Positions 5,827 to 63,731 of a stretch of DNA of 64,000 bases are shown piece by piece. Positions within the stretch are counted from its first letter, which is position 1; each line of letters starts with the position of its first letter. The position numbers and the translations under genes were made by a program. The stretch comes from a phage, in sequence record PZ445527.1. The stretch is one strand, 5' to 3'. Under the pieces are notes generated by a model. That model was not told where the DNA came from, searched no databases, and saw only the letters and a list, made by a program, of their open reading frames with translations.

Positions 5827-6248
5827 TATTGAGTTACCCCATCACTAATATAAACTTTGCCTTCCATAATACGGAAAGAACTAGCAGCACTACCAACAGC
5901 TGTTCTAGTAATAATTACATCATAGTATCCAGCTAATCTCTGTCTAGGATTATATCTATCTCTTTCTTTGGATGCTTTGGAAGCAATAGTAGTTACAGCA
6001 CTAACGGGTAGACTTATAGATGCTACTCCTTGCTTCGCATCAACAATAGATGTAGTAAAAGATGCTAAAGTTTCAGCCCCATCTTCTAGATTGCTTTTAA
6101 TAGTACCTCTTAAAGAGAAACCAGTAAGGTCTACCGGTTTAGATGTAGAGGGATAAACACTATCATCCACATCCATAAATTGCATAAGTAAACCATAAGG
6201 TACGTTCTCGTCTACTACTAAATCAATAACTCTATTTTCTGTACTCAT
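5826..6248 (-). CDS. collar/baseplate-associated protein (T5 p132-like)
   Basis: 140 aa; position between tail-fibre and pb4-like genes matches T5 order. Confidence 0.55.
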
Positions 6249-6252
6249 TATT

Positions 6253-8355
6253 TTACCTTATATGGATATACCCGTTTTGCAGGTCTATCTTCATTTTGTA
6301 GGATCCCTCTGGGTTAGAGGATAGTGCTGCTGCACGATCATATATAATATTTACACCAATTTGTGATAAGAAAGCATTGTTAGCAACAATTTTACTAGCA
6401 GTTACCGTGCCATTAACTATCATATCCCCGTGTAAAACCATTGCAGGACTAGCCCATGCCGAACCATTCCACTGCCTAGTAAACGCTGTTCCTGGTGCTC
6501 CACTTTTATACTCGGTTAATACATCATATTTAACAGGGCCAGTACCAAAGTTAGATGTAAAGAATGAATTAGCTTGTGAATCATTCCATGCTGTTAAATT
6601 AGCGATAGCAAGAGAATACATTCCTGGACCACGTTGTCCTGTATCTCCTGGCCTACCATCAGCACCAGGTTTACCATCAGCCCCCGGTCTACCATCAACA
6701 CCTTCTGTACCACTCCATTGAACTACGTCTGACCAGCTAGTTCCAGATACTAATTGATTAGTAACAGGATCTAAAGTACCTGTAGAACAGTAAATATTTT
6801 GAGTATTAGATGTTCTATTAGGTGGAGTTTTTGACCAACCTGAAGGTGGATATGCAGGGCTTGTAGGTTTAGCAGGTAGTGAGGTTCCTAGAGTATAGAT
6901 AAATACTGTTTGCTTACCTTGTATACCTGTTGCTATATCGATGTCACCGTTAGGTGTACCAATTACAACCCCACTAGAGATTCTTAATGTATCACCGTCG
7001 TAACGAATGTACTGGGTAGCATTGCCAATATCCAGTTTTGGTTTAGCAGTAGCATTATCCATACCCATCCAGATACCAGATCTTGTATCACCCCAAGTTT
7101 TGCCTTGAGTATAAATTGCTGGATTATCTTGACCAGTTAGATTGGTCATAACAAAATTCGCAGCATTTATAGTTTTAGTGATTACACTACCATCAACGTT
7201 AACTATCTTTTTAATAGGGTCAAAAGATATTGGTGCTTTTCCTTCTGCATCTAGAAGACCTATATTAATAGCACCAGTAGCAGCATCTATCAGGAAAGTT
7301 TGTTTCCAAGTAGAACCATCTTTGATCTTGCCCTTAATATATGCGTAGTTTACCTCAATACCGGTTTCGTTTACAAAACTGTTATCTAGTGGAGTATCTT
7401 CCTTTAGTATAAAAGTTTGTACAGCAGAGTCGGTAGTATCCTGCTTACTTGGTCCCCAGGCAATAGACGACACTTTAAATTTATGCTCTACTTTCCACGG
7501 GAATGATATAATTGTTGCTGATTGGGCAGCACCCACATTAATTTTTTGTGCTTTAGTCCATCCAGTTCTTGCAAACTCTGCTGAATCTATATAGGATAGA
7601 ACAAACTCACGAACATTAGCCCCTGCACCTCTATTCCAATCCCACTGAACACGCAAATCATAGCGTTCTTTACCATCTGCAATGCGCGCTGCTTTAAACT
7701 CAATATTAGTGGGTGCGGTAGGAGGAACAAAATTATAGTTAACTTCAAAGACAGTAGGATACTCATAGTATCCAGATGAATCAATAGTAACACCGTCTGG
7801 TAGGCTTATTTGACCAGAAATTCTTACTTTATAGAATCCGATTGGTACGCCACCAAACATAATAGTTGGCATCAGTGCACCAACGTAATATTTAACCCAC
7901 GGGTTATTGGCATTAGAATTATTCTTTAATTCTATAGTACAATAATCGGCCTCCCCTGTAGTATCTATATAAACTATGGGGGCCCCAACCCCAACATCTA
8001 CTGGTTCTGACTCGCATCGAGCACCTGTGATTCTAGGTGCTGATTTCATTTTAAAAGTTTGCTTATCAGATAGATTAATTCCTATCTGTGCATTAAGAAG
8101 TTCAGAGTCTATTATGGAATCATAAAATGCACCCTGAACTTCATAAGTTGTTGTAGGTTTTAGATTATTAATAGTTACAGAGAAAGTATCAACACCCGTG
8201 AAGTCTCTACGAGTAATATTACTACCTTCTTTTAGCCAAAAAGATCTGCCTATAACGTCATAATCTGAGTAAATAGAATGCTGGATATACGCCAACGTAT
8301 ATCCAGTTAAGACGCTATTTAGAACCATTTTAGCTGGTGCATTATTTGAGATCAT
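6253..8355 (-). CDS. baseplate central fibre protein (pb4-like) with collagen-like repeat
   Basis: 700 aa; Gly-X-Y run [24 protein letters not shown]; synteny. Confidence 0.65.
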
Positions 8356-30296: not shown

Positions 30297-31031
30297 TTAT
30301 GCGACTTTTAGTTTCTCAATATATTGTTGCGGGCTGCAACTATATTCTGCGCGTTCTTCCTCGGTCATACTTTCCCAACATAATTGCAAACGGTCGGCTA
30401 GGAACTGATAATCATTATCATCGTCGAGAGATTCATCGATAAAGGTTTCACCTATCAATGTAACGCCGATTGATAGAATATCGTTAACGGCTTGCGCGTC
30501 CAGCGTTTTAAATCCGTATGATGCCGCCGCCGCCAATACTCCTTTATGGTCGTCGATCATCGTGAAATCAGCGTTCGGATATAGCTGCTTAAATAACTCA
30601 AAATAATGGCTTTTATATATAGCGTCTTTACTGTGGTATATTTCGCTAACTTTATCAGCTTCAAAATATTTATGTAGTGTATCGCGGGAAAATACACGGA
30701 TATTACTATCCCCACGCCCTCGCAGTCCTTGCTTGCGTAGGTAATAATAATCTGATTTGCTCATTAGTCGAGCGGTGCAAATAATGTTTAACGTGTTGGC
30801 GTCATTCATGCATTGGCGCATATATGTAACAAGCGGCAATAGTGTGTCTTGCATTATTAAATCATGTTTACACGCTTCATTCTTATACTTATTTAGATCT
30901 AGATTGCCCTCACTATCAAAGCAAGGCGCTACGCGATGGAATGAATTAACGACCGTGCCGTCAAGATCCCAAATCATGACGCGGGAAATATGCGGGAAAT
31001 TACGGGTAATATTCGTTTTAACTTGATTCAT
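30297..31031 (-). CDS. dmp: 5'-deoxyribonucleotidase (HAD family), T5 Dmp-like
   Basis: 244 aa; HAD motif I WDLDGTVV; size matches T5 Dmp. Confidence 0.8.
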   Translation of the reverse strand: MNQVKTNITRNFPHISRVMIWDLDGTVVNSFHRVAPCFDSEGNLDLNKYKNEACKHDLIMQDTLLPLVTYMRQCMNDANTLNIICTARLMSKSDYYYLRKQGLRGRGDSNIRVFSRDTLHKYFEADKVSEIYHSKDAIYKSHYFELFKQLYPNADFTMIDDHKGVLAAAASYGFKTLDAQAVNDILSIGVTLIGETFIDESLDDDNDYQFLADRLQLCWESMTEEERAEYSCSPQQYIEKLKVA

Positions 31032-31105
31032 TTTGTTACGTTCTCCATTAAAGGGATTAAATTAAATTAATTCAGCCCACTGGATGGGCTGGACTATTCC
31101 AGCTA

Positions 31106-31501
31106 TTAAAGGCCAGACGCTAACGCATCAGCGATGACGGTAATATCTTCGCCCGATACGCTGGAACGAATCCCCGCACAAGTATATACTTTTGCGCTCG
31201 CTAGCTGGTCATCAAGGCAAGCGGGGCAAGGCGTGACAACTGCAAAGGCTAACCCTGATTTCACCGCGTCAATAATGGTCGTTTCCTGCTTCATCGTGTC
31301 AATGTAAACGCCTTTCGCCTTGATGCGGCTGGATAGTTTGCCCGTGGTATAGGCGAAAGTAGTGATCTGTAGCGCCTCATTAAACTCGATTAAATCATCG
31401 ACAACGTGACCGGCCTCAACGTGATACCGCTCACCATTAGAATAAACCAGAACGATAGAAGACTGAGCGCGATCGAATGGAATACGGTTAGAAATAGCCA
31501 T
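31106..31501 (-). CDS. hypothetical pre-early protein
   Basis: 131 aa ORF between dmp and A1. Confidence 0.5.
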   Translation of the reverse strand: MAISNRIPFDRAQSSIVLVYSNGERYHVEAGHVVDDLIEFNEALQITTFAYTTGKLSSRIKAKGVYIDTMKQETTIIDAVKSGLAFAVVTPCPACLDDQLASAKVYTCAGIRSSVSGEDITVIADALASGL

Positions 31502-31570
31502 TTTTATAACTCCAATTAATTTAATAAACTTTTATAGGGGCGGTATATTTCAACCGCCAACCTGATTTAT

Positions 31571-33235
31571 TTACGCAAAAAATTTACCGTTCTTAAAGTC
31601 GATCAAAGTGCGCTGACCGTTTGCATAGGTAATTAAATGCGTTTGCGTCCAGCTTGACGCGCCAACGTTGTAACCCATGTCCAGACTACCAGCCACGCCG
31701 GCGGTATATACCCCGCCGTAAATGCTGGCGGTATGAGTGTGCCCCGTGTTTAATTTGCCCAATTTCTTAAATTGCTTCGGATTGCCGCGGCTCCCGTTTA
31801 TGCCATTGTGACCGTGTACGCCGCACTCAATGCCTGCAATCTTGAAAGATTGGTCAGTCGTTAGAAAAATGGCGTTAAATTCACAACCTGCAACCTTGCG
31901 CAACGCATAATCAAGCACGTTGAAAGTATCGTCTTTTTCTGCAATAGCTCCGTAAATTGCAGCATTAAGGCGGTGATATAGTTCCGCGTTCGCTGGGTCG
32001 TCTTTAATGTTAGCATTACGATCATCAAGCCAACGGGATAGCGCCAAATCGTGATTCGATTCAACAATGATTGTTTGAGAAAAATCGCGCTCCATCGATT
32101 CCAGCACGCGACCGGTATCGATAAGATCATCCAGAATTTTATCACGTCCAGCGGCGTACTGTTTTGCTAGGAATACACCGCTGGCGCGATTGTGATGGTT
32201 GCGTGATGTAAAATCATGCACGTCATGCACGAATTGATATTTTGGTTTAAGAATATCAAGCAAGCTATTTTCGCCAGCCCATGACGCTGCGGCGCAATCG
32301 TCATCTAATTTTTCGGCGTGTATGTCACCATATTGCAAGCCTAAAACATGCCCCGACGTTTCATAGCATCCGGCGGGAGTGGCGCAAATATTCAAATCGT
32401 AAAACACGCCGCTTTCATCCATCGTTTCAAGCTGGCGAACAAAAAATTCTCCGTCTTCGTCGAACTCGACAACAAGCGCGCCAAAGTTATGCAGCGCCTC
32501 CGCTTTCTGTCCTGCTTTCTGCTGGATGTAATTTTTTAGCGTTGCCGTTCCGGTTGAATACATACGGCGCACTACTTCACCTTTTAAAGCTGGAACGCTT
32601 TCGGCGGTGATTTTAGCCGCTCCAATTGCCAGACCTTCAAGATTAAGCGCGGTTGCAGTTTCAGCGAATCCAGAAAGCGGATAGTCTGCGGTAGGTAAAA
32701 CGTTAATTTCAGCCATGAAAGCAAAGCGGCGGTTATTTAAAAATACATTCTTATTGCAGATATATTTGTCAAAAGCGGAATCATATTTGATTCCGTTGGC
32801 GCCCTCGCCATTTTGAAAACCGTTTTTGTTATAAATAAACTTGCTAACCAGCAAATCAGCGCCGATAAATTGGGCATATTGCTCCAGTGAGGCCAAAAAG
32901 TTTTTATGCGGGAACGTATTATTCTGAATCGATGTAATAATAAAGCGTTTTCCCTGCTTTACTTCCCATTGCTCGATCGTGCTAGAAATAACTCCAGCGG
33001 CTTCAGGGCGGTCATCGTTTTTTATGGCTTTTGCTACTTTCGCCGCTTTTGGTTTCGCTGGTTTATTTGCTTCCAGCCAGTCACAAATCGCAGTGGAATG
33101 TTTTGCAGTATCGTAAACCGCTTTTGATATATCGTCGCATACTTCCAGCTTAGTAGCGCGCAGACGTTTACCGTAGAAATTGAAATCAGCGGCAAGGTTG
33201 AGGATCTGGGTTTGTTTTTCTGCGGAAATAACCAT
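31571..33235 (-). CDS. A1: A1-like pre-early protein (calcineurin-like metallophosphoesterase / nuclease)
   Basis: 554 aa; metallophosphatase motifs GDIHAE, HDVHDF, ESNHD, GHTH. Confidence 0.8.
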   Translation of the reverse strand: MVISAEKQTQILNLAADFNFYGKRLRATKLEVCDDISKAVYDTAKHSTAICDWLEANKPAKPKAAKVAKAIKNDDRPEAAGVISSTIEQWEVKQGKRFIITSIQNNTFPHKNFLASLEQYAQFIGADLLVSKFIYNKNGFQNGEGANGIKYDSAFDKYICNKNVFLNNRRFAFMAEINVLPTADYPLSGFAETATALNLEGLAIGAAKITAESVPALKGEVVRRMYSTGTATLKNYIQQKAGQKAEALHNFGALVVEFDEDGEFFVRQLETMDESGVFYDLNICATPAGCYETSGHVLGLQYGDIHAEKLDDDCAAASWAGENSLLDILKPKYQFVHDVHDFTSRNHHNRASGVFLAKQYAAGRDKILDDLIDTGRVLESMERDFSQTIIVESNHDLALSRWLDDRNANIKDDPANAELYHRLNAAIYGAIAEKDDTFNVLDYALRKVAGCEFNAIFLTTDQSFKIAGIECGVHGHNGINGSRGNPKQFKKLGKLNTGHTHTASIYGGVYTAGVAGSLDMGYNVGASSWTQTHLITYANGQRTLIDFKNGKFFA

Positions 33236-33332
33236 AATAATAAAACTCCATTAAAGGGATTAAAAACGTTTGTTATTGGCAAATATTGCCAGATATAACG
33301 CCTCAAATAATAGGCGTTATAATTTGCAATAT

Positions 33333-33548
33333 TTAACTAATTGGCATTAGGCTAGAACTAACCCCACAAGCAATGGCGGCTATTAAACAAAGTAAGCCCA
33401 ACCGCTTTGCTAATTTAGCTTTACGCTTAAAATAATACGAATCCAGATCATTTTGGAAGTATGCAAATAATAATGAGGCCGCCATAATAAATAAGCCTAG
33501 AATGAGGGATTCAGTAGGGTAAAAGACCATTTTAATAACTCCAGTCAA
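33333..33548 (-). CDS. small membrane protein
   Basis: 71 aa, two predicted TM helices. Confidence 0.4.
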   Translation of the reverse strand: MTGVIKMVFYPTESLILGLFIMAASLLFAYFQNDLDSYYFKRKAKLAKRLGLLCLIAAIACGVSSSLMPIS

Positions 33549-33586
33549 AGGAAATTATAGCGGGGAATATTCCCCGCTAATTAAAT

Positions 33587-33994
33587 TTATTCGCCTGCGG
33601 CTTGTTTTACTTCATCGGCAACGCCTAACAGCTGCGCCACGGCGTCCAGCGTTTCTAATTTTGCGCTTTCCAGGGATGCCAGATCGTCAACGTCTTTGAT
33701 AATGCCGGAATCAATGGCATGTTTTGCAATAACGCGCACGTAATGCGCTTTGCGGATAGAACTACCGCCGCCAACTTTGCGCGGCTTATCGCTTTTCTGA
33801 TACGCTTTCGCGCTGGTCAATTTTGAGCGAACGGACACGGGAGAAGTCGCGCCAACTGCTTTTGCAATTTCTCTCAGGCCGTCGCTGTTGGCGAACTCCA
33901 AGCCGTTCTCATTGATTAGCTGTTGATACATGGTAACAGCCTGCTGGGTGTTTTCTTCATTCCAAGAGAATTTTGCGGTTTTAACGTTAGTCAT
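33587..33994 (-). CDS. A2: A2-like pre-early DNA-binding protein
   Basis: 135 aa; position upstream of A1 as in T5. Confidence 0.65.
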   Translation of the reverse strand: MTNVKTAKFSWNEENTQQAVTMYQQLINENGLEFANSDGLREIAKAVGATSPVSVRSKLTSAKAYQKSDKPRKVGGGSSIRKAHYVRVIAKHAIDSGIIKDVDDLASLESAKLETLDAVAQLLGVADEVKQAAGE

Positions 33995-34090
33995 GATATA
34001 AACTCCAATTAATTTAATTTAAGGGATAAGATTAACACAATGTTAATCGTTATATACCCCGAACTGCTGGGGTATATAAAGTTAACACTA

Positions 34091-34342
34091 TTACGCTACA
34101 GCTTCCCATTTTTCGTTACGTTGAACAACCTTTACAACGTCGCCGGATTTAACGCGAACGTTATAAATAGTTTTCCCGTTGTTACTCCGTTCCGTTTCAG
34201 CGTAAACCGCATCAATTACATCAAACGGCATAAGCGACGCGCCTTTAATGCGTTCGGCTTTTCCGGTTAGTTCATCCGTTTTAGTAACGAAAGGAATGAA
34301 GACGGATTGACCAATTTTCGGCGCATTAGTAACGTTTTTCAT
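34091..34342 (-). CDS. hypothetical pre-early protein
   Basis: 83 aa ORF upstream of A2. Confidence 0.45.
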   Translation of the reverse strand: MKNVTNAPKIGQSVFIPFVTKTDELTGKAERIKGASLMPFDVIDAVYAETERSNNGKTIYNVRVKSGDVVKVVQRNEKWEAVA

Positions 34343-34569
34343 AGTATAAACTCCAGTTTATTTCGTGGATTGTTCCGCATTACCTGCTAAAAAGTAACAG
34401 GTAATAAGAAAAAATCCGCTCGCCAATATAATCAATTTAAAGAACTCCACTCAGGCCGCTATATCCCGTTAGGGGGCGGGGCACATTTTGGCAAGTACCG
34501 GCCGTCAAATTGTATCAAGTTATCGCTCTTATCGAACTGGGTACATCTTAAAGCCTATCGGCTAGGGTG

Positions 34570-34773
34570 TCAAACTATTTTTTGCAGTTTTTTATGATTT
34601 TCCTTCAGGTCGATCATAATATTTCGCCAGATCATTTCTAGACCTTGCTGGCGGCCTTTCTTGTACTGCTTAAATCGATATTTTACCGATCTTTGCGCTA
34701 TTGTCAATAGCTTTCTAGTATTGCCATCCAGTTTTTTGGCTGGTTTACCAGTGACTAATAAAGTTTGTTTCAT
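34570..34773 (-). CDS. hypothetical basic protein
   Basis: 67 aa Lys/Arg-rich ORF. Confidence 0.3.
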   Translation of the reverse strand: MKQTLLVTGKPAKKLDGNTRKLLTIAQRSVKYRFKQYKKGRQQGLEMIWRNIMIDLKENHKKLQKIV

Positions 34774-35446
34774 ATCTGCGATCCCTTATAATGTAATAAG
34801 TTTGCCGCCGATAGACTTTAAGATATACCCAATTTTTAAAGAGCGCGGCGGTAAACTTCCCGCCGTGTAGTTCGTCATTGCCGCCCTACGAGATAAATAA
34901 TAACAAATGCCAAAAATGGCGCAACCTTATTTTTGTAAAGAAACGTAAAGAAAGCAAATACTCGCACCGCGTCCGGCGATTGCCCAAGTTTAAAGGAAAC
35001 GGGCGCGCGGATACCATAAAATCCAGCAGATAGGCAAGTAATTTTTTCATTTATATTTGCCTTGCCCTACTTGATTTTTCTAGAATCCATCAGGTGACGA
35101 TAAACGGGCTATCCCTTTATGATGGGATACCTGAAAAATTTACCTCGTTGTAGGACGTTTTAGGCCGCTTATTTTCGAGTTAACAAATATTTAACAAAAG
35201 CAAAATTGAAAAATAGTTGTAAAAGGTATTGACTTTTAAAAATCAAGATTAAACGAGTTATTTTATAAAATTAATTAATTGACTTTTATTTGTTGTTGTG
35301 TACTAGAAAGATAGCAGACTAATAATTACTAGAATGATAATCATGCTGGTGGATTGTAACAGCCTGAACCATTAGCAGACTACTAATTCCGGAAAATCTC
35401 ATTAGCCAACTAACTATTTCCTGAGTTATAATATAAACATAAATTA

Positions 35447-35600
35447 ATGAGAAATAATAACTATAAAAATAATCACCATTATAATAATAACTATAAAAAT
35501 AATAACTATAAAAATAATCGCCATTATAATAATAATTATAAAAATAATCGCCATTATAATAATAACTATAAAAATAATCACCATTATAATAATAACTATA
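35447..35600. repeat. tandem direct repeats, about 26-27 bp unit, about 5.5 copies
   Basis: unit ATAATAA(C/T)TATAAAAATAATC(A/G)CCATT repeated head to tail. Confidence 0.85.
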
Positions 35601-35639
35601 AGAAACTATCGGTCTAAGTGAGAATCACTATCATTTAAG

Positions 35640-35721
35640 TTATTCACAAAGTTATCCACAGCACAAAATGATTTGACACGATAGGCGGCGATATAAGGGC
35701 TTATCCACAGACTTATCCACA
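35640..35721 (+). promoter_or_regulatory. cluster of DnaA boxes
   Basis: TTATTCACA (35640), TTATCCACA at 35652, 35701 and 35713 (three perfect consensus boxes), all same orientation. Confidence 0.75.
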
Positions 35722-36041
35722 GGTTTTCCTACTGTATAAATATACAGGGTAAAAAGGTAGTGTTAACGACTGCAATCAATTTTAAGCGGCCTAAATCGCT
35801 TTCTAACGAGCTAAATGATGCGGGGTAATATTAAAGTAAAGCCTCCACCCGTTGCCCTGGGTGAAGGGTATTGATATTTCTACTTTTACCGTTAACAACG
35901 AAAACGAGTAATAATTAACCTAATGTAAAGTTTTGTAAAGGTCGCCATAATCGGTGGCTTTTTTGTTATAATGCCCCTACACCGTTTGAGGACGGTTGAA
36001 AATTTTCCCAAAAAAATTTTGGAGGCTTAAAATGGTTGCGT

Positions 36042-36262
36042 ATTCTTCTTCTGACGCTCTTTTCACTGGAAAAGGCTGGGTATCAAATCGCTGGATCATT
36101 CAAGAAATGGTGCGGGAGTTCGGCATTGCTAAAACTTACACTACCATTCAGGCGCTTTATGATAATGATCAAATCGATCAGCAAACGGCGGGCTTTTTGC
36201 TGGATACCCTGAAGGCGGAACATTGTACTAAAAAACAAGCCGCCAAAATTGCTTTAATGTAA
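36042..36262 (+). CDS. hypothetical protein (73 aa)
   Basis: RBS GGAGG 6 nt upstream of ATG 36042; first gene of + strand cassette between inverted DnaA-box arms. Confidence 0.5.
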
Positions 36263-36304
36263 CTAATAACGGGGCGTTATTTTCGCCCCACTAACTAGGG
36301 GGGA

Positions 36305-36457
36305 ATGAAAATGGTTATTTTTCGATCAATTCTGGCGGGTATCTTGGGCGCTGTTTTATCACTTTTTGCCATAGCTTTCGGCGTTCACGCGGTTATTGTT
36401 GGCGCGGGTATCGCCGTTTTTTCTTATTTGCTGGGCTGCATGAGTAAAGGGGAATAA
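36305..36457 (+). CDS. small membrane protein (50 aa)
   Basis: two hydrophobic helices; G-rich RBS. Confidence 0.4.
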   Translation: MKMVIFRSILAGILGAVLSLFAIAFGVHAVIVGAGIAVFSYLLGCMSKGE

Positions 36458-36459
36458 AA

Positions 36460-36672
36460 ATGATCCGCAACGTTTCTCTTGCTCGTTCGAAAGGCTTTAA
36501 GCTGGTGGACGTTAACACGTTCGAGCGGGAAGATTGTAAAATTGAATATATAGCACGGAATAAAAACGCCTTCCGTGTTACTGAAAAGAAATTCGATAAG
36601 CGCGGCAACGTGATCGCTGAAACGGTTAGACACTTTGCCACCTTTTACGCGGCCTTTCGTGGGGTACTATGA
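36460..36672 (+). CDS. hypothetical protein (70 aa)
   Basis: ORF tightly packed after previous gene. Confidence 0.5.
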   Translation: MIRNVSLARSKGFKLVDVNTFEREDCKIEYIARNKNAFRVTEKKFDKRGNVIAETVRHFATFYAAFRGVL

Positions 36673-36794
36673 AAAGCGTTGTTATTGTTATCCTTGCAAT
36701 GGTTGGCGGTTTTACCGCCACCTTATTTAAGAATGATCCCCTTTCATTGGGGATTTTTATGCTTTTATCTGGTTACCTGATTGGGAGGTTATAA
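36669..36794 (+). CDS. small membrane protein (41 aa)
   Basis: ATGA start/stop overlap with previous ORF; TM helix. Confidence 0.4.
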   Translation: MKSVVIVILAMVGGFTATLFKNDPLSLGIFMLLSGYLIGRL

Positions 36795-36795
36795 A

Positions 36796-37140
36796 ATGGT
36801 AATTTATGAAGGCAATCGCTTTGTTACTAATTGCCGCCCGGCATTGTTAGCAAACTACTTAAACCAGCTTTCTCCTGAATATAAGGGCGTTGTTAATATT
36901 TACGAGGGAAAAGCGCATTATAAGATTAATGCGGTCGTTGCCCGTGAACTAGCGTTTCAATTTTTGACCTTTGCATCTTGTGATATTCAGGTCATGGGGG
37001 AGGCGTTAATCGCAGAAAATGAAAATGATTTTATTAATATTTTTCGCAAAGTATGCACCGAGCGCCTGATAATGAAAGGCGCATATATTCAATCCACTGC
37101 GGATAGTATTGAAACAGCGTTTCGAAAGGTGGCACAATGA
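36796..37140 (+). CDS. hypothetical protein (114 aa)
   Basis: RBS GGGAGG then ATG 36796. Confidence 0.5.
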   Translation: MVIYEGNRFVTNCRPALLANYLNQLSPEYKGVVNIYEGKAHYKINAVVARELAFQFLTFASCDIQVMGEALIAENENDFINIFRKVCTERLIMKGAYIQSTADSIETAFRKVAQ

Positions 37141-37155
37141 AATTATATATTTTCG

Positions 37156-37434
37156 TTGGTAATAGTAAGGCAGCTAATGATTCCGCTGGGGGCGATAACG
37201 TTCGCCACTATTGGCAAAAATATATTTACTAGGGTTATTATGAGCAATAAAATTATTATAACTAAAACTACCACAATGGTAGACGTTTTTTACGTGCCCG
37301 ATACGCCGGAAAACCGGCAAGCGGTCGAGCGGGGTGATTATGGTAGCGTTATTTATGATGCCGATGGCTATTATCGGCATTTGGTCGATTCCTATGGGGA
37401 AGAGGAGAAGATCACGCATCGACTACCAGACTAA
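37156..37434 (+). CDS. hypothetical protein
   Basis: 92 aa ORF, start uncertain. Confidence 0.35.
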   Translation: MVIVRQLMIPLGAITFATIGKNIFTRVIMSNKIIITKTTTMVDVFYVPDTPENRQAVERGDYGSVIYDADGYYRHLVDSYGEEEKITHRLPD

Positions 37435-37469
37435 TAATAACGGGGCGCAACTATCAGGGAGTGCCCCCA

Positions 37470-37507
37470 ATTCTCAAATGAGAATCATTCTCAAATGAGA
37501 ATGATTC
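37470..37507. repeat. overlapping near-perfect palindromes TCAAATGAGAAT(C/G)ATTCTCATTTGA
   Basis: dyad symmetry read directly; flanked by GGGGCGC...GTGCCCC inverted repeat. Confidence 0.8.
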
Positions 37508-37747
37508 TCATTTGACCGCGCCCGCGATGGTTAGCCTGCTAATGATTAGGGTGTTACGTGTCGCCTTGTGTGATCGTTAGCTCGCTAACTAATTTTCAAG
37601 CCTCCTCCAATTTTGCCCTTGTTTTAGTATCCCCGCCAAAATTAAACGCGTTAGAATGCGATTCAGGACGTTTTAGCGGTATATTAGAATTATTCACTGC
37701 ATAGGAATACTGTATAAATATACAGTAGAATAACCTGGGGATAAGTC

Positions 37748-37816
37748 TGTGGATAACGCTTCAAAATGGCTAGGATTCTGTCAAGTCAAATCGTGCTGTT
37801 GATAAGTCTGTGGATA
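37748..37816 (-). promoter_or_regulatory. DnaA boxes in inverted orientation
   Basis: TGTGGATAA at 37748-37756 and 37808-37816 (reverse complement of TTATCCACA), preceded by palindrome TACTGTATAAATATACAGTA (37708-37727). Confidence 0.75.
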
Positions 37817-37839
37817 ACTTAAATAACAGTGTTTCTCAC

Positions 37840-38047
37840 TTCCGTTTTTAAATGCGAATCATTATCATTCGTATTCCACTATCTAACCGATAATCATTCC
37901 ACTTTTTAAATGAGAATCGTTTCACTTCTTGAATAGTTCTCATTCCCTTTCTTAAATGCGAATAATTATCATTCGCATTTCACTTTTTAAATGAGATTGA
38001 TTCTCATTATCATTCGCATTCAGGCGAGCAGGGCAATTGCCCTGCGC
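37840..38047. repeat. array of AATG(C/A)GAAT...ATTCGCATT palindromic motifs ending in perfect 18-bp palindrome GCAGGGCAATTGCCCTGC
   Basis: repeated TTTTTAAATG(A/C)GAAT units and dyad-symmetric AATGCGAATAATTATCATTCGCATT. Confidence 0.75.
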
Positions 38048-38050
38048 TTT

Positions 38051-38276
38051 TGTGCAAATCCGACATCTGCTCCAAGGGTTACGTGCTGGCGTGTATGTGC
38101 AAATCCGACAATTTTTGGTAGTGTGCAAATCCGACCCGAAAAATTTTTATAGTGTGCAAATCCGACGACGAATCTGTCTCCCAAAAACTCCAGCAATCAC
38201 GAACTGCGTTCGAATCCTGTGGGATATGTGCAAATCCGACATGGTTTTTCTAGGATTAAGATGTGCGAATCCGACA
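38051..38276 (+). repeat. six direct 14-mer iterons GTGCAAATCCGACA (one variant GTGCGAATCCGACA)
   Basis: copies at 38051, 38097, 38123, 38154, 38228, 38263; irregular 25-75 bp spacing; same orientation. Confidence 0.85.
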
Positions 38277-38605
38277 AGATTTTTGTGACTTCGATTGAAG
38301 GGTGTGTGATTGTGTGGGTTTGAGGAGAAGATGAGAGAGCGAGAGAAATTTTGGGACTAGAAGGATGTGGGCGCAGGATTGGTGCGGAGCACCTGATTTG
38401 CGGGGATTTTGGGGAAGATGTGGGATAATTTGGGAAGATTTGAGATAGGTGCAGAAAAAGTGAAATTTTATTAGCAAAATGGGGCAAAATAGCTTGACAA
38501 GTGAAAATTTCTGTGGCTCTAAAAACTCAGGCAATCATGGGCCTTCGGCCCGAAATAATGCTGCTATTTTCAGGAGAGTAGGAGTTCCTAAAAACTTAGG
38601 CGTTT

Positions 38606-38654
38606 GTGCAAATCCTACCATAAATTTCTAGAATATCAATGTGCAAATCCGACA
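38606..38654 (+). repeat. two further copies of the 14-mer iteron
   Basis: GTGCAAATCCTAC (38606) and GTGCAAATCCGACA (38641). Confidence 0.8.
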
Positions 38655-57648: not shown

Positions 57649-57885
57649 TTAACTAGATGCTGGTTCTGCTGGCTGAGATACAGCAGGCTGTTCTAATGTA
57701 TCTGGTGCTGATACAGAGAAAAGAGCTTGTAATGCTGCAATATCACGCTCGTAAGTTTCAATACGAGTAGTAAGAGTATCTACCATCTGTTTATGATAGG
57801 CTAAGTTATTCTGAGATTCATCTCGAAGGGTTTGCAGTTCTGCAAGACGTGTTAACATAATTTCACTAATTAAAGCATTACTCAT
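57649..57885 (-). CDS. hypothetical protein
   Basis: 78 aa coiled-coil ORF. Confidence 0.45.
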   Translation of the reverse strand: MSNALISEIMLTRLAELQTLRDESQNNLAYHKQMVDTLTTRIETYERDIAALQALFSVSAPDTLEQPAVSQPAEPASS

Positions 57886-58075
57886 TTGTTTCTCCTAAAT
57901 TTTCCGGTTCTTCTAAACGTTTGCCTTCATGATCTACTCGAATAACTCCGCATCCTTCGCAAATCACAACTGCACCATAACCTTCTTTGACTTCAGCTTC
58001 TGTAATCAAACCAGAAAGATCACCAGTATCTCTGCCCCACATATCAATGGAGCATTGTTTGCAGAAATCAGCCAT
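57878..58075 (-). CDS. zinc-ribbon protein
   Basis: CKQC ... CEGC. Confidence 0.45.
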   Translation of the reverse strand: MADFCKQCSIDMWGRDTGDLSGLITEAEVKEGYGAVVICEGCGVIRVDHEGKRLEEPENLGETNE

Positions 58076-59802: not shown

Positions 59803-59879
59803 TTTGGCGCGACTGATGGGATTTGAACCCACATTCCCTCCCGTGATAGGGGAGTACCATTACCAAGCCAGCCACGGTC
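59803..59879 (-). tRNA. tRNA with atypical anticodon loop CTATCAC (anticodon uncertain)
   Basis: CCA encoded, T-arm GTGGG-TTCAAAT-CCCAT, acceptor 6 of 7 paired, perfect anticodon stem CTCCC/GGGAG. Confidence 0.45.
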
Positions 59880-59890
59880 GCATAATTTAT

Positions 59891-60416: not shown

Positions 60417-60492
60417 TGGACGACCGCATGAGGATTGAACTCACATAAAAAGGATTTGCAATCCTTCGCCTAAGCCATTCAGCCAACGGTCG
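60417..60492 (-). tRNA. tRNA-Cys(GCA)
   Basis: acceptor CGACCGT/GCGGTCG, anticodon arm AAGGA-TTGCAAA-TCCTT, T-loop TTCAATC, CCA encoded. Confidence 0.82.
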
Positions 60493-60670
60493 ATTTATCT
60501 TGTTTTTCGAGATCTTCAAACTCTAAATCATTGAAGTTCCCTAGAGTACGGGTATAGAACCCATCCCCTGCGTCATAGCCTGATTTACCACAATCACACA
60601 TTTTAAATTCGCGCAGGTGTGTGAAAACATGTTCAGAACCACAACACTTAAATCTAACTAATCGTTTCAT
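60479..60670 (-). CDS. zinc-finger protein
   Basis: 63 aa; CCGSEH...CDCG motifs; 3' end overlaps tRNA-Cys by about 14 nt. Confidence 0.4.
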   Translation of the reverse strand: MKRLVRFKCCGSEHVFTHLREFKMCDCGKSGYDAGDGFYTRTLGNFNDLEFEDLEKQDKSTVG

Positions 60671-61978: not shown

Positions 61979-62053
61979 TGGTGGGTCGGAGGAGAATCTA
62001 ACTCCTACTCGTTAGCTTATGAGGCCACCGCTTTAACTTTAAGCTACCGACCC
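61979..62053 (-). tRNA. tRNA-Met or Ile2 (anticodon CAU)
   Basis: acceptor GGGTCGG/CCGACCC perfect, D-arm GCTT/AAGC, anticodon loop CTCATAA, T-arm AGGAG-TTAGATT-CTCCT (atypical T-loop), CCA encoded. Confidence 0.65.
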
Positions 62054-62059
62054 TATGTT

Positions 62060-62148
62060 TGGCGGAAGAAGTGGGAATCGAACCCACAAGGCTATATTTC
62101 AAACCGACAGATTAGCAATCTGCTGCAATACCGTTATGCTATTCTTCC
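62060..62148 (-). tRNA. tRNA-Ser(GCU)
   Basis: acceptor GGAAGAA/TTCTTCC perfect, anticodon arm GCAGA-TTGCTAA-TCTGT, long variable arm, T-arm GTGGG-TTCGATT-CCCAC, CCA encoded. Confidence 0.8.
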
Positions 62149-62168
62149 GAATTTATAAATATATTATA

Positions 62169-62687
62169 TTAGAAATTTAGCTTCATAGCAAGAAAATTTT
62201 TCAAGTTTTCGGTAGACATCTCATCCACATCTACAGGAGAAACAAATCCATTTAATTGTCTAGCAAATTTTTTACCAGCAGGATCATTATCCCCAACAGC
62301 TACCAATTTAAAAGGTAGTAATTTCAATTGCTTTAATAGCGCTTTTCCTGGAGAAGAACCCAACATTGCCAAGGCTGGATAACCAGCGTTATGTAACGCA
62401 ACTGCCTTAAATACAGATTCAGCAATCAATACCACTTTTTCATCTCCATTGAGAGTTTCTAGTCCCCATACACACTGTGTAGTAGAATAAGTAAAATATC
62501 TAGCTTCAAAGGGGCACTTACCATGACCTTTTGGAGCAGAAGGATTATAAGTCTGATAGCCTCTCAACATCCCAGAGAAGTCATACAATGGGACTGTTAG
62601 CCATCCTTCCGGGCTTAACCAGCAATGATATTTATCTGTATCAAACCCTCTAGATAAGAGATGTTCTGTTAGTTCATCAACAGTCAT
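62169..62687 (-). CDS. Toprim-like domain protein
   Basis: 172 aa; LIAESVFKA (conserved Glu) and GDNDPAGKKFA (DxD) resemble a Toprim fold. Confidence 0.4.
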   Translation of the reverse strand: MTVDELTEHLLSRGFDTDKYHCWLSPEGWLTVPLYDFSGMLRGYQTYNPSAPKGHGKCPFEARYFTYSTTQCVWGLETLNGDEKVVLIAESVFKAVALHNAGYPALAMLGSSPGKALLKQLKLLPFKLVAVGDNDPAGKKFARQLNGFVSPVDVDEMSTENLKNFLAMKLNF

Positions 62688-62783
62688 ATTTGATCCCCTA
62701 GTTAGTTGTATAAATACATTATACAGAAAAGCCCTGCGCTCTCCAGTGAACGCAGGGCTTACTTCGAATATTACGTGTGGGTA

Positions 62784-63731
62784 TTACTTGTTACGCATAT
62801 CCATAATCATTTGGCCATCGTAACCAGTGCCAACCACAGTCTGCGGTACACCACCTTGATACTTCTGAGCACGAATCATTTCAACTTCTAGTTGCTTCCA
62901 GCGAATCATCTCAGGAGTAATGGTACGTTGCAGAGCGGCGTTAGCTTCAGCTTCTTTCTTAGCTGCGTACAGTTTAGCATCTGCATCACGTTCGTTTGCA
63001 ATAGCTTGGTTGTTACGAGCTTCACGATCTGCTTCTGCTTGTTTAACCTTCTGCTGTGCTTCTTGTTCAACACGAGCCAACTCAGCTTTCGCAGCATTAA
63101 CTTGTTCTTCACGAACTTTGGTATTCTGTACCTGTTCCATGATTACAGGCGGCAAAGTAATATCCTGAAGGAACACTTGCTTAACTGTGTAACCATAAGG
63201 GCGTGCATACTCTTCAACTTCCTGTTGAATTGCAGTTTGCAATTGAGCCTGAATTTTAGCATCAAACAAATCTTGTGCTTTAGGTACAGACTTACCAAAC
63301 TCACGAATAGTAGACAGTAATTTTTCAGTTACATACTTGTCTAGTGCCTGATCCTGAGTACCTGCATTAATACGGTTAATCGGTGCCTTAGAACCATCAA
63401 ACTGCAACATAACAGTCAGGTCAACAGTGGATTTAAACTTATCCTGACTAGGAACCTGAAGTTTATCTAATTTTACAGCAATATCTTTTGTACTGAAAGT
63501 ATCGAAAGATGCAAACGGGTTTACAATATGGAAACCAGGTAATACTGGATTAGGGTCTACTTTACCAAGAAATGTTTGGGTTTTAACCGTACCATCAGAA
63601 ACAATAGTATATGAATTAAAAGCTAGGATTAAACCTGCTAAACCAACTACAGCACCAATACCCCAACGTTTAATAGTACGGATTACTTTCTGCTCAGAAG
63701 TCAGTTCTTTCATATTTTTAGTAGCAAACAT
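62784..63731 (-). CDS. SPFH/Band-7 (prohibitin/HflK-like) membrane protein
   Basis: N-terminal TM helix, SPFH-like core, long C-terminal Ala/Glu/Gln-rich coiled-coil. Confidence 0.65.
   Translation of the reverse strand: MFATKNMKELTSEQKVIRTIKRWGIGAVVGLAGLILAFNSYTIVSDGTVKTQTFLGKVDPNPVLPGFHIVNPFASFDTFSTKDIAVKLDKLQVPSQDKFKSTVDLTVMLQFDGSKAPINRINAGTQDQALDKYVTEKLLSTIREFGKSVPKAQDLFDAKIQAQLQTAIQQEVEEYARPYGYTVKQVFLQDITLPPVIMEQVQNTKVREEQVNAAKAELARVEQEAQQKVKQAEADREARNNQAIANERDADAKLYAAKKEAEANAALQRTITPEMIRWKQLEVEMIRAQKYQGGVPQTVVGTGYDGQMIMDMRNK

Follow-up and report, generated by a model that had tools for sequence, protein, structure and literature searches.

Introduction

The described primases nearest to the gene reported here are bacterial DnaG and gp4 of phage T7, in which an N-terminal RNA-polymerase subdomain and a Toprim domain form the catalytic core. 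DnaG possesses in addition a CHC2 zinc ribbon, a DnaB-binding domain, and a larger RNA-polymerase domain (RPD) to which a helical subdomain is attached C-terminally; T7 gp4 possesses an N-terminal Cys4 zinc-binding domain (ZBD) and a fused helicase. The cores of the T7 and E. coli primases do not make template-directed primers de novo when the ZBD is missing. A DnaG-like protein that works on RNA is the archaeal exosome-associated DnaG.

Accessory primases that act outside the replisome are represented by TraC1 of plasmid RP4 and Sog of R64 (Pfam Toprim_2/3/4), each a domain within a large protein that is transferred and is encoded on a T4SS element. Toprim_2 is an active Toprim of such DnaG-like primases of mobile elements, and the Toprim_2/3/4 mobile-element primases are never found in phage polyvalent proteins (Iyer et al. 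2017, PMC5512222).

The gene of a T5-like phage that is described here, termed mini-primase gene in the following, very probably encodes a stand-alone catalytic core of the DnaG/T7-gp4 type (N-terminal RNA-polymerase subdomain plus Toprim), an accessory paralogue without zinc ribbon, helicase-binding or helicase module. Literature searches returned nothing specific on T5.076 (its orthologue in phage T5), on any other member of the family, or on a phage Toprim primase that lacks a ZBD and has been characterised.

Gene and flanking features

The mini-primase gene is located on the minus strand at positions 62169..62687 of the window, i.e. the whole 64,000-nucleotide stretch of phage DNA (record PZ445527.1) that was analysed. 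It comprises 172 codons and a TAA stop, in agreement with the 172-aa ORF called in the initial annotation. The DNA of this region is 94-97% identical to that of T5-like phages (Demerecviridae, Markadamsvirinae), e.g. Shivani, DT57C and SHSML-45, and T5.076 ('DNA primase-like') is the orthologue of the mini-primase gene. The orthologue in DT571/2 is annotated as 'hypothetical protein T5.076 (DNA primase-like protein)', and the RefSeq name is 'DNA primase'. A comparison of 26 distinct T5-like alleles of the gene gave a median dN/dS of 0.055, with a median dS of 0.25; the ORF is clearly a real gene that is under strong purifying selection where it is present.

The upstream neighbour is a gene for an SPFH/Band-7 protein (62784..63731, minus strand), which is core in T5-like phages and is closed by a terminator-like hairpin of 13 pairs followed by a T-run (62729..62760, minus strand). 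Overlapping this hairpin is a promoter-like site upstream of the mini-primase gene, TGGAGA-16-TATAAT (62718..62745, minus strand), which is weak evidence of a promoter, being drawn from a consensus scan that as a whole gave no enrichment relative to shuffled sequence. The promoter-like site is followed by a Shine-Dalgarno sequence, AGGGGA, 5' of the ATG. On the other side, genes for tRNA-Ser(GCT) and tRNA-Met(CAT) (61979..62148, minus strand) begin 20 nt past the mini-primase stop codon on the same strand, and in both, the CCA end is genome-encoded, as read from the sequence. The window contains 12 tRNA genes, from 57.4 to 63.9 kb, and the mini-primase gene sits among them.

Domain organization and conserved residues

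The best Pfam match of the 172-aa protein is Toprim_2 (residues 88-149; 24.7 bits relative to a gathering cut-off of 22.1; E=3.2e-5), and the protein matches PHROG 849, 'DNA primase', over residues 3-167 (E=5.3e-62), with the match spanning profile positions 146-337 only, of 435. An AF2 model, for which an alignment of 125 homologues was used as input, has a pLDDT of 95.2 and a pTM of 0.91. From the order of secondary-structure elements in this model, the Toprim domain extends over residues 83-160 (62208..62441, minus strand), and the chain ends about 12 residues beyond it. Residues 1-80 (62448..62687, minus strand) form the N-terminal subdomain of a primase RPD. The similarity to Toprim and primase families greatly exceeds what chance would produce. 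The Toprim assignment of the initial annotation is correct, and the non-Toprim fold that would have refuted it was not obtained; the protein is more than a bare Toprim domain, however.

When the model was compared with the PDB using Foldseek, which is the kind of structure check that had been suggested for the Toprim assignment, the top matches were all Toprim-containing primase catalytic cores and spanned the entire chain. They comprised DnaG of Mycobacterium tuberculosis, E. coli (1dde, TMq 0.70), Pseudomonas aeruginosa, Aquifex aeolicus and Staphylococcus aureus, and also the primase of T7 gp4 (1nui, rmsd 3.4 Å over about 186 columns) and Twinkle. RNase M5 superposed on the Toprim half only (TMq 0.43-0.47), and neither an OLD nuclease nor a topoisomerase was among the matches listed. 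A structure search of viral proteins in BFVD gave the same primase picture. At the sequence level, a single-sequence search of PDB sequences returned nothing meaningful, and a profile of the family was needed to retrieve E. coli DnaG (E=2e-6). In a comparison with the T5-type replicative primase using hhalign (96.8% probability), residues 27-171 aligned with primase residues 126-286, which are all that follows the zinc ribbon of that protein. No zinc-ribbon Pfam family matched the 172-aa protein, and a helicase-binding C-terminal domain or a fused helicase is absent. Since the entire chain corresponds to a primase RPD, assignment of this protein to the bare Toprim nucleases (OLD, topoisomerase or RNase M5 type) was rejected.

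The two sequence segments on which the Toprim assignment had initially been based, LIAESVFKA (residues 87-95; 62403-62429) and GDNDPAGKKFA (residues 132-142; 62262-62294; both minus strand), contain the expected acidic residues at a Toprim-like spacing, with 43 residues from E90 to D133. Conservation was counted over the 125 homologues, and positions in E. coli DnaG were taken from the family-profile alignment. The Toprim catalytic glutamate, E90 (62418..62420, minus strand), equals E265 of E. coli DnaG and is kept in 124 of the homologues; D133 and D135 of the DxD motif D133-N-D135 (62283..62291, minus strand) equal D309 and D311 and are kept in 110 and 118, respectively. A fourth conserved acidic residue, D153 (62229..62231, minus strand; 116/125), matches by position the 'PEGKDPGD' segment of the T5-type primase. 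The second acidic position of the EGxxD motif, D269 in DnaG, is occupied by K94 (62406..62408, minus strand); lysine is found at this position in 43 of the 125 homologues and aspartate in 68.

The N-terminal subdomain is represented by a conserved set of residues, L10, R13, G43-Y-Q-x-Y47-x-P49, K53, R63-Y64-F-T66 and W74-G75-L. G43, Y64 and G75 are invariant among the 125 homologues, at least 90% of which also have L10, R13, Y47, E90, F93, D135, G138 and D153. W74-G75-L matches LYGL of DnaG in the family-profile alignment. Judged by its order and spacing relative to W-G-L, the segment R63-Y64-F65-T66 (62490..62501, minus strand; [RK]-Y-[FY]-T in the family) is the putative counterpart of DnaG motif III (K-Y-L-N-S). 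Conservation of the motif III-like and W-G-L motifs points to nucleotidyl transfer rather than to a plain nuclease.

The N-terminal Cys/His cluster noted in the initial annotation did not withstand comparison. C22, H55, C58 and C72 are present in this protein, but no more than 16, 14, 6 and 9 of the 125 homologues, respectively, retain them, and a 59%-identical relative already lacks H55 and C58 of the H-G-K-C segment; an N-terminal zinc or metal cluster was therefore rejected, and the mini-primase is taken to have no zinc site, because these residues are not conserved.

An optional second primase-like gene

T5-like phages encode a replicative primase of 296 aa (Zn_ribbon_DnaG, DNAG_N and Toprim), whose gene is located directly after that for the D6 DnaB-like helicase and before that for the DNA polymerase; in a BLASTP comparison, the mini-primase is barely significantly similar to it (E=0.036). 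Guernseyvirinae have a separate gene annotated as 'replicative helicase-primase', and at a locus of the Privateer lineage (L039), a gp4-like ORF, judged by eye from its sequence features, is found within 4.5 kb of the mini gene. Thus, a separate full primase is present in every lineage checked (T5-likes, Guernseyvirinae, Privateer-lineage).

In the phage collection at a threshold of at least 80% identity, the canonical primase was found in 442 records, the SPFH protein in 441, and the mini-primase in 272; the last is missing from about 40% of the T5-like records. In Epseptimavirus S113, the slot between the SPFH and tRNA-Ser genes holds genes for a NadR-type NMN adenylyltransferase and PnuC and a small ORF instead, and truncated or frameshifted mini-primase copies occur in a few T5-like genomes (L033, L036). 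A viable T5 strain, T5Mos, carries a deletion of T5 positions 30661-38625 (PMC11464382). By coordinate conversion to the 121,750-bp T5 record (locus L016), T5.076 is at about 37282-37797 and appears to be inside this deletion, with the proviso that the published coordinates may differ by a few bases. In T5-like phages, the mini-primase gene is a second, primase-like gene that is optional and dispensable. Its product is not the replicative primase, because a complete DnaG-type primase is encoded beside the DnaB-like helicase.

Three other arrangements were considered and rejected. A split replicative primase, with its zinc finger encoded by a nearby small ORF, is at variance with the complete primase that is encoded elsewhere in T5-like phages; the Cys-rich small ORFs at 60479..60670 and 57878..58075 gave no match to a primase-type zinc ribbon and belong to unannotated PHROGs, with only a sub-threshold DUF7695 match in addition for the former. 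Obligate pairing with the upstream SPFH gene conflicts with the record counts given above, the SPFH gene being core and the mini-primase gene not. A strict either/or relationship with NadR/PnuC in a single slot is excluded by numbers, since 272 plus 207 records exceed the 442 T5-like records; SB10-type phages have space for both.

Distribution and genomic context

In a full HMMER scan of 1.84 billion representatives, with counts given as 50%-identity clusters, a threshold of E<=1e-3 yielded 444 clusters and one of E<=1e-10 yielded 251; the family hence comprises at least 444 clusters. The members are mostly stand-alone proteins of 165-190 aa, and among 156 homologues retrieved, 124 have a length of 155-215 aa. 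The longer members are fusion proteins. Two of the fusions involve CCA-adding-type tRNA nucleotidyltransferases, and in opposite domain order: in one (P0154), a CCA-adding-type part (PolyA_pol, RNA-binding and HD domains) precedes the mini-primase; in the other (P0073, locus L094), the mini-primase precedes a PolyA_pol head, and the next gene encodes HD/tRNA_NucTran2_2. Other fusion partners are Mom, a cytidylyltransferase-like (NMNAT-like) domain, a GNAT domain together with an Arr-type ADP-ribosyltransferase, a HAD domain (P0087), ParB_N, and a DUF3268 zinc-finger domain.

The genomic context was inspected at 110 loci from IMG/VR, GenBank phages, plasmids and metagenomes, which fall into 24 lineages (single linkage, 60% identity). 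The commonest context is a tRNA cluster: a tRNA gene is found within 1 kb at 46 of the 110 loci, representing seven of the 24 lineages; 17 lineages have no tRNA gene within 1 kb, and 16 have none within 3 kb. Further RNA-related neighbours comprise a tRNA nucleotidyltransferase gene that adjoins and overlaps the mini-primase gene in Vibrio phage F100, RtcB beside it in Erwinia phage Deimos-Minion, RNA_ligase (two occurrences), HAD_SAK_2, AAA_33, DUF2828/DUF7788, and Metallophos. Genes of NAD+ salvage (NAMPT, NMNAT-Nudix) and Acb1 (two occurrences) are also found nearby, and SPFH genes in about five lineages, including Acinetobacter plasmids of about 105 kb, which may be phage-plasmids. Replication-related neighbours are gp32 preceded by an ORF that was judged gp59-like by eye (eight loci, one lineage), ATP-dependent DNA ligase (four occurrences), PolA accompanied by an SNF2 helicase, a 5'-3' exonuclease, and ribonucleotide reductase. 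A DnaB-type helicase gene was never adjacent to the mini-primase gene in the loci examined. In jumbo phages of Erwinia and Klebsiella, the mini gene is split over two frames.

Provision of tRNAs, RNA repair, NAD+ supply and signal degradation have been described as phage adaptations to conflict (PMC7824862), and the neighbour categories of the mini-primase match these. Its accessory status and its location in islands with tRNA, NAD+-salvage, RNA-repair and Acb1 genes fit only loosely to the possible anti-defence role raised in the initial annotation.

Predicted function

For the function of the mini-primase, our tentative first choice is that of an auxiliary primase with relaxed template specificity, which we put ahead of a role at tRNA or other RNA ends while regarding it as possible rather than probable. 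The parts for the chemistry are conserved (the acidic metal site and the motif III-like contacts to NTP and primer), and those for template-site choice (the zinc finger) and helicase coupling are missing, as would be expected of a free-standing RNA-polymerising core. An auxiliary primase is suggested by the homology to primases, by the relationship of Toprim_2 to the accessory primases of mobile elements (PMC5512222), and by the replication contexts that occur in several lineages. In the mechanism that we envisage, single-stranded DNA would be held in the cleft between the two subdomains; E90, D133, D135 and D153 would bind Mg2+/Mn2+, K53 and R63-Y64-T66 would contact the incoming NTP and the primer 3' end, and a short RNA would be synthesized or extended. 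With the zinc finger missing, initiation might be non-specific, or a ZBD might be supplied in trans, possibly by the 296-aa phage primase, or the enzyme might mainly extend existing 3' ends. Its likely, optional use would be to prime or reprime phage DNA additionally under conditions that impede normal replication.

Several observations count against an auxiliary primase. The T7 and E. coli cores depend on their ZBD for de novo priming, as outlined above, and the DnaG metal-ligand aspartate (D269) is replaced by K94 in the subgroup of this mini-primase. Furthermore, the commonest contexts are tRNA clusters, RNA-repair and NAD+-salvage genes and not replication genes, the two fusions with CCA-adding tRNA nucleotidyltransferases are independent of each other, and adjacent DnaB-type helicase genes are lacking in the loci examined.

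These contexts give rise to a serious rival that we nevertheless consider rather unlikely, namely that the primase-type active site acts on RNA and not on the phage chromosome. In one variant, the enzyme would fill in or extend damaged tRNA 3' ends before CCA addition, with the acceptor stem's 5' strand serving as the template; in another, it would take part in other tRNA processing that maintains the translation apparatus against tRNA-targeting immunity. The proximity to tRNA clusters on the same strand argues for such a role, as do the fusions with CCA-adding-type domains in both orders, the gene overlap in phage F100, the adjacent RtcB in Deimos-Minion, the RNA_ligase, HAD_SAK_2, AAA_33, DUF2828/DUF7788 and Metallophos neighbours, and the HAD-domain fusion in one member. 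A zinc finger would be dispensable for an enzyme that only extends, and Toprim enzymes that act on RNA are known, e.g. RNase M5; AriB and P2 OLD are also described as Toprim tRNases.

Against a role on RNA stand the majority of lineages without a tRNA gene in the vicinity, and the Guernseyvirinae, which keep the mini gene though they have no annotated tRNA genes. Both tRNAs checked in the T5-like phage encode their own CCA, and we know of no CCA-adding enzyme in T5-like phages and of no DnaG-type RPD that uses an RNA template or a tRNA primer. In addition, large phages have their tRNA clusters in regions that are accessory in general, where proximity may represent co-transfer and not function, and the 24 lineages are not mutually independent. 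Still less probable, in our estimate, is the wider proposal that the family as a whole represents an RNA polymerase which arose from a primase and now maintains tRNAs. It would rebuild or process damaged 3' or acceptor ends so that a CCA-adding enzyme, which in some phages is fused to it, can finish the repair, and it would act jointly with RNA ligases, NAD+ salvage and the tRNAs of the phage in counter-defence against tRNA-targeting bacterial immunity.

A Toprim nuclease, as considered in the initial annotation, that cuts DNA or RNA via the E/DxD metal site, in anti-defence, host takeover or pre-tRNA processing, is improbable. The intact Toprim acidic residues, the match of the RNase M5 Toprim to the C-terminal half, the accessory, conflict-island location, and the departure of K94 from the primase EGxxD motif are compatible with it; on the other hand, the whole primase N-subdomain is conserved, including [RK]Y[FY]T and the invariant glycines and tyrosine, and would be superfluous for a simple nuclease, neither an OLD-type ATPase nor the C-terminal domain of RNase M5 is present in the mini-primase, and the best structural matches are all primases. 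Like a nuclease, a non-catalytic remnant or regulator (a truncated primase copy that serves as decoy or subunit, e.g. to modulate the replicative primase or the helicase, or else a pseudogene in decay) fits the conservation pattern poorly and is the least probable reading: two of three primase modules are missing, the gene is absent from many T5-like records, damaged in a few, and split in jumbo phages, but the low dN/dS, the catalytic residues conserved across 444 clusters and down to about 30% identity, the compact and confident AF2 model, and a stand-alone size that is the rule of the family and no accident all argue against such a reading.

Implications

The present analysis amounts to a correction of annotation rather than to a new system, since hundreds of phage genomes call the mini gene "DNA primase"; the fold is known, in an uncharacterised, widespread and accessory form. 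The family moves between phages as a cassette, is strongly conserved where present, and is accompanied by tRNA, RNA-repair, NAD+-salvage and anti-CBASS genes. The role of a bare primase core would reveal either a new replication-rescue route or a new RNA-repair activity, and either would extend the counter-defence repertoire of phages; if the RNA-directed reading were true, the family would provide the first demonstrated case of a viral DnaG-type catalytic core that works on RNA substrates. The question is directly testable by T5 genetics and simple in vitro assays.

Comparison with described systems

With the RPD of T7 gp4 (1NUI, 6N9V), the mini-primase shares a fold of two subdomains that takes up almost its entire chain (rmsd 3.3-3.5 Å, TMq 0.67-0.69), a similar minimal size, and the Toprim glutamate and DxD motif; in contrast to gp4, it has neither ZBD nor helicase, and the identity is 14-17%. 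The core of bacterial DnaG (E. coli 1DDE/1EQN, A. aeolicus 2AU3, S. aureus 4E2K) is homologous by profile as well as by fold, whereas the zinc ribbon, the C-terminal helical subdomain and the DnaB-binding domain of DnaG have no counterpart in the mini-primase, and the position of DnaG D269 is taken by K94. The T5-type replicative primase is of the same phage lineage and the same superfamily; it has a ZBD and is core, whereas the mini-primase is ZBD-less and accessory.

The mini-primase belongs to the group named 'DNA primase' in PHROG 849 and RefSeq and 'Toprim domain-containing protein' in UniProt, the members of which are found in T5-like, Privateer-like, Guernseyvirinae and jumbo phages and on the Acinetobacter plasmids of about 105 kb; for this group, 'DNA primase' is a name assigned by homology. 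A short DnaG-like paralogue that exists alongside a true DnaG, the 'DNA primase-like protein' MG010 of Mycoplasma (TIGR00646), was matched weakly (E=7.8e-5; 22 bits relative to a cut-off of 261). MG010 is cellular, not viral, and is outside the mini-primase family; the weak resemblance shows that ZBD-less DnaG paralogues exist in cells too.

TraC1 and Sog are related through Toprim_2; they are parts of large transferred proteins, whereas the carrier of the mini-primase is a virulent phage. The 'D-aromatic-N-acidic' motif before strand 4, diagnostic of the TraC1/Sog type, is only loosely matched by D153-V-D155-E156 (D-[LV]-[DG]-E in the family). RNase M5 (6Z2B, 6TPQ) superposes on residues ~83-160 and is without the primase N-subdomain that the mini-primase has. 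Three features that define a bona fide DnaG-type primase are lacking, namely the zinc ribbon, the coupling to the helicase and, within this subgroup, one of the acidic ligands; the protein is therefore filed not as 'a DNA primase' but as a distinct stand-alone variant.

Variable cargo site and possible cassette exchange

T5-like phages have a variable cargo site that is flanked by the SPFH gene and tRNA-Ser(GCT) (62688-62783 in the window; 3946-6397 in L095, Salmonella phage S113). In the window this slot is occupied by the mini-primase, while in S113 it contains a NadR-type NMN adenylyltransferase/ribosylnicotinamide kinase, a PnuC transporter and a 98-aa ORF; the mini-primase and the NadR/PnuC set seem to be present together in SB10-type phages. 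A locus on a contig of 112,564 bp that appears to be Salmonella phage S124 (L013, 4897-6519) encodes a mini-primase allele that is 99% identical to that of the window, whereas its SPFH protein is only 92.7% identical, and this difference in sequence identity suggests a recent exchange of the mini-primase cassette between Tequintavirus and Epseptimavirus.

Neighboring genes

The SPFH/Band-7 protein (62784-63731, minus strand) is core in T5-like phages (441 records). Counterparts with 60-80% identity are encoded by Klebsiella, Enterobacter, Citrobacter and Aeromonas phages of about 170-180 kb, and in distant phages and Acinetobacter plasmids of about 105 kb an SPFH gene is again located near the mini-primase.

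A promoter-like site (TTGCTA-17-TATAAT; 62163-62191, minus strand; a consensus match only) is located within the final codons of the mini-primase ORF, directly upstream of tRNA-Ser. Because of this position, the tRNAs past the ORF may be expressed independently as well as by transcription that continues from the ORF. An additional tRNA gene, tRNA-Asp with the unusual anticodon ATC (59805-59881, minus strand), was predicted using ARAGORN; the corresponding gene is inconsistently named tRNA-Asp(UGG) in the record of phage DT571/2.

A small Cys-rich ORF (60479-60670, minus strand; weak match to DUF7695, PHROG 7042) is located no more than about 1.5 kb away from the mini-primase in the window, and it also occurs in Proteus Novosibvirus and another phage lineage of about 108 kb (L010, 4246-4416; L076 and L082, 6634-6951). 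When this ORF was compared with the primase-type zinc ribbon, no match was obtained.

Split and fused homologues

In many Erwinia and Klebsiella jumbo-phage genomes (L004, L011 and L083-L091, around 6000-6520), the mini-primase homologue is distributed over two reading frames or ORFs, with the break near residue 77, i.e. at the boundary of the N-subdomain and the Toprim domain. Such a split could reflect a programmed frameshift or a genuine division into two genes, or the homologue could be a pseudogene.

A Mom-like DNA-modification gene is encoded in one operon with the mini-primase in Guernseyvirinae (L092, Salmonella phage vB_CECAV_044, 1-6163), and a faint match to a Mom-like gene was found near the mini-primase at another locus (L094, 898-2436); in the homologous protein P0101, a Mom-like domain is fused to the mini-primase.

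Four long metagenomic fusion proteins (P0057, P0083, P0100 and P0107) have in common the mini-primase module and the repeated motif 'NPxTGNxILVKTALKYxxxHPAY', supplemented by ART-like, ParB_N or NMNAT-like domains. Iyer et al. 2017 (PMC5512222) described the polyvalent proteins of phages as being without Toprim primases; the architecture of these four fusion proteins resembles the 'polyvalent proteins' of that study.
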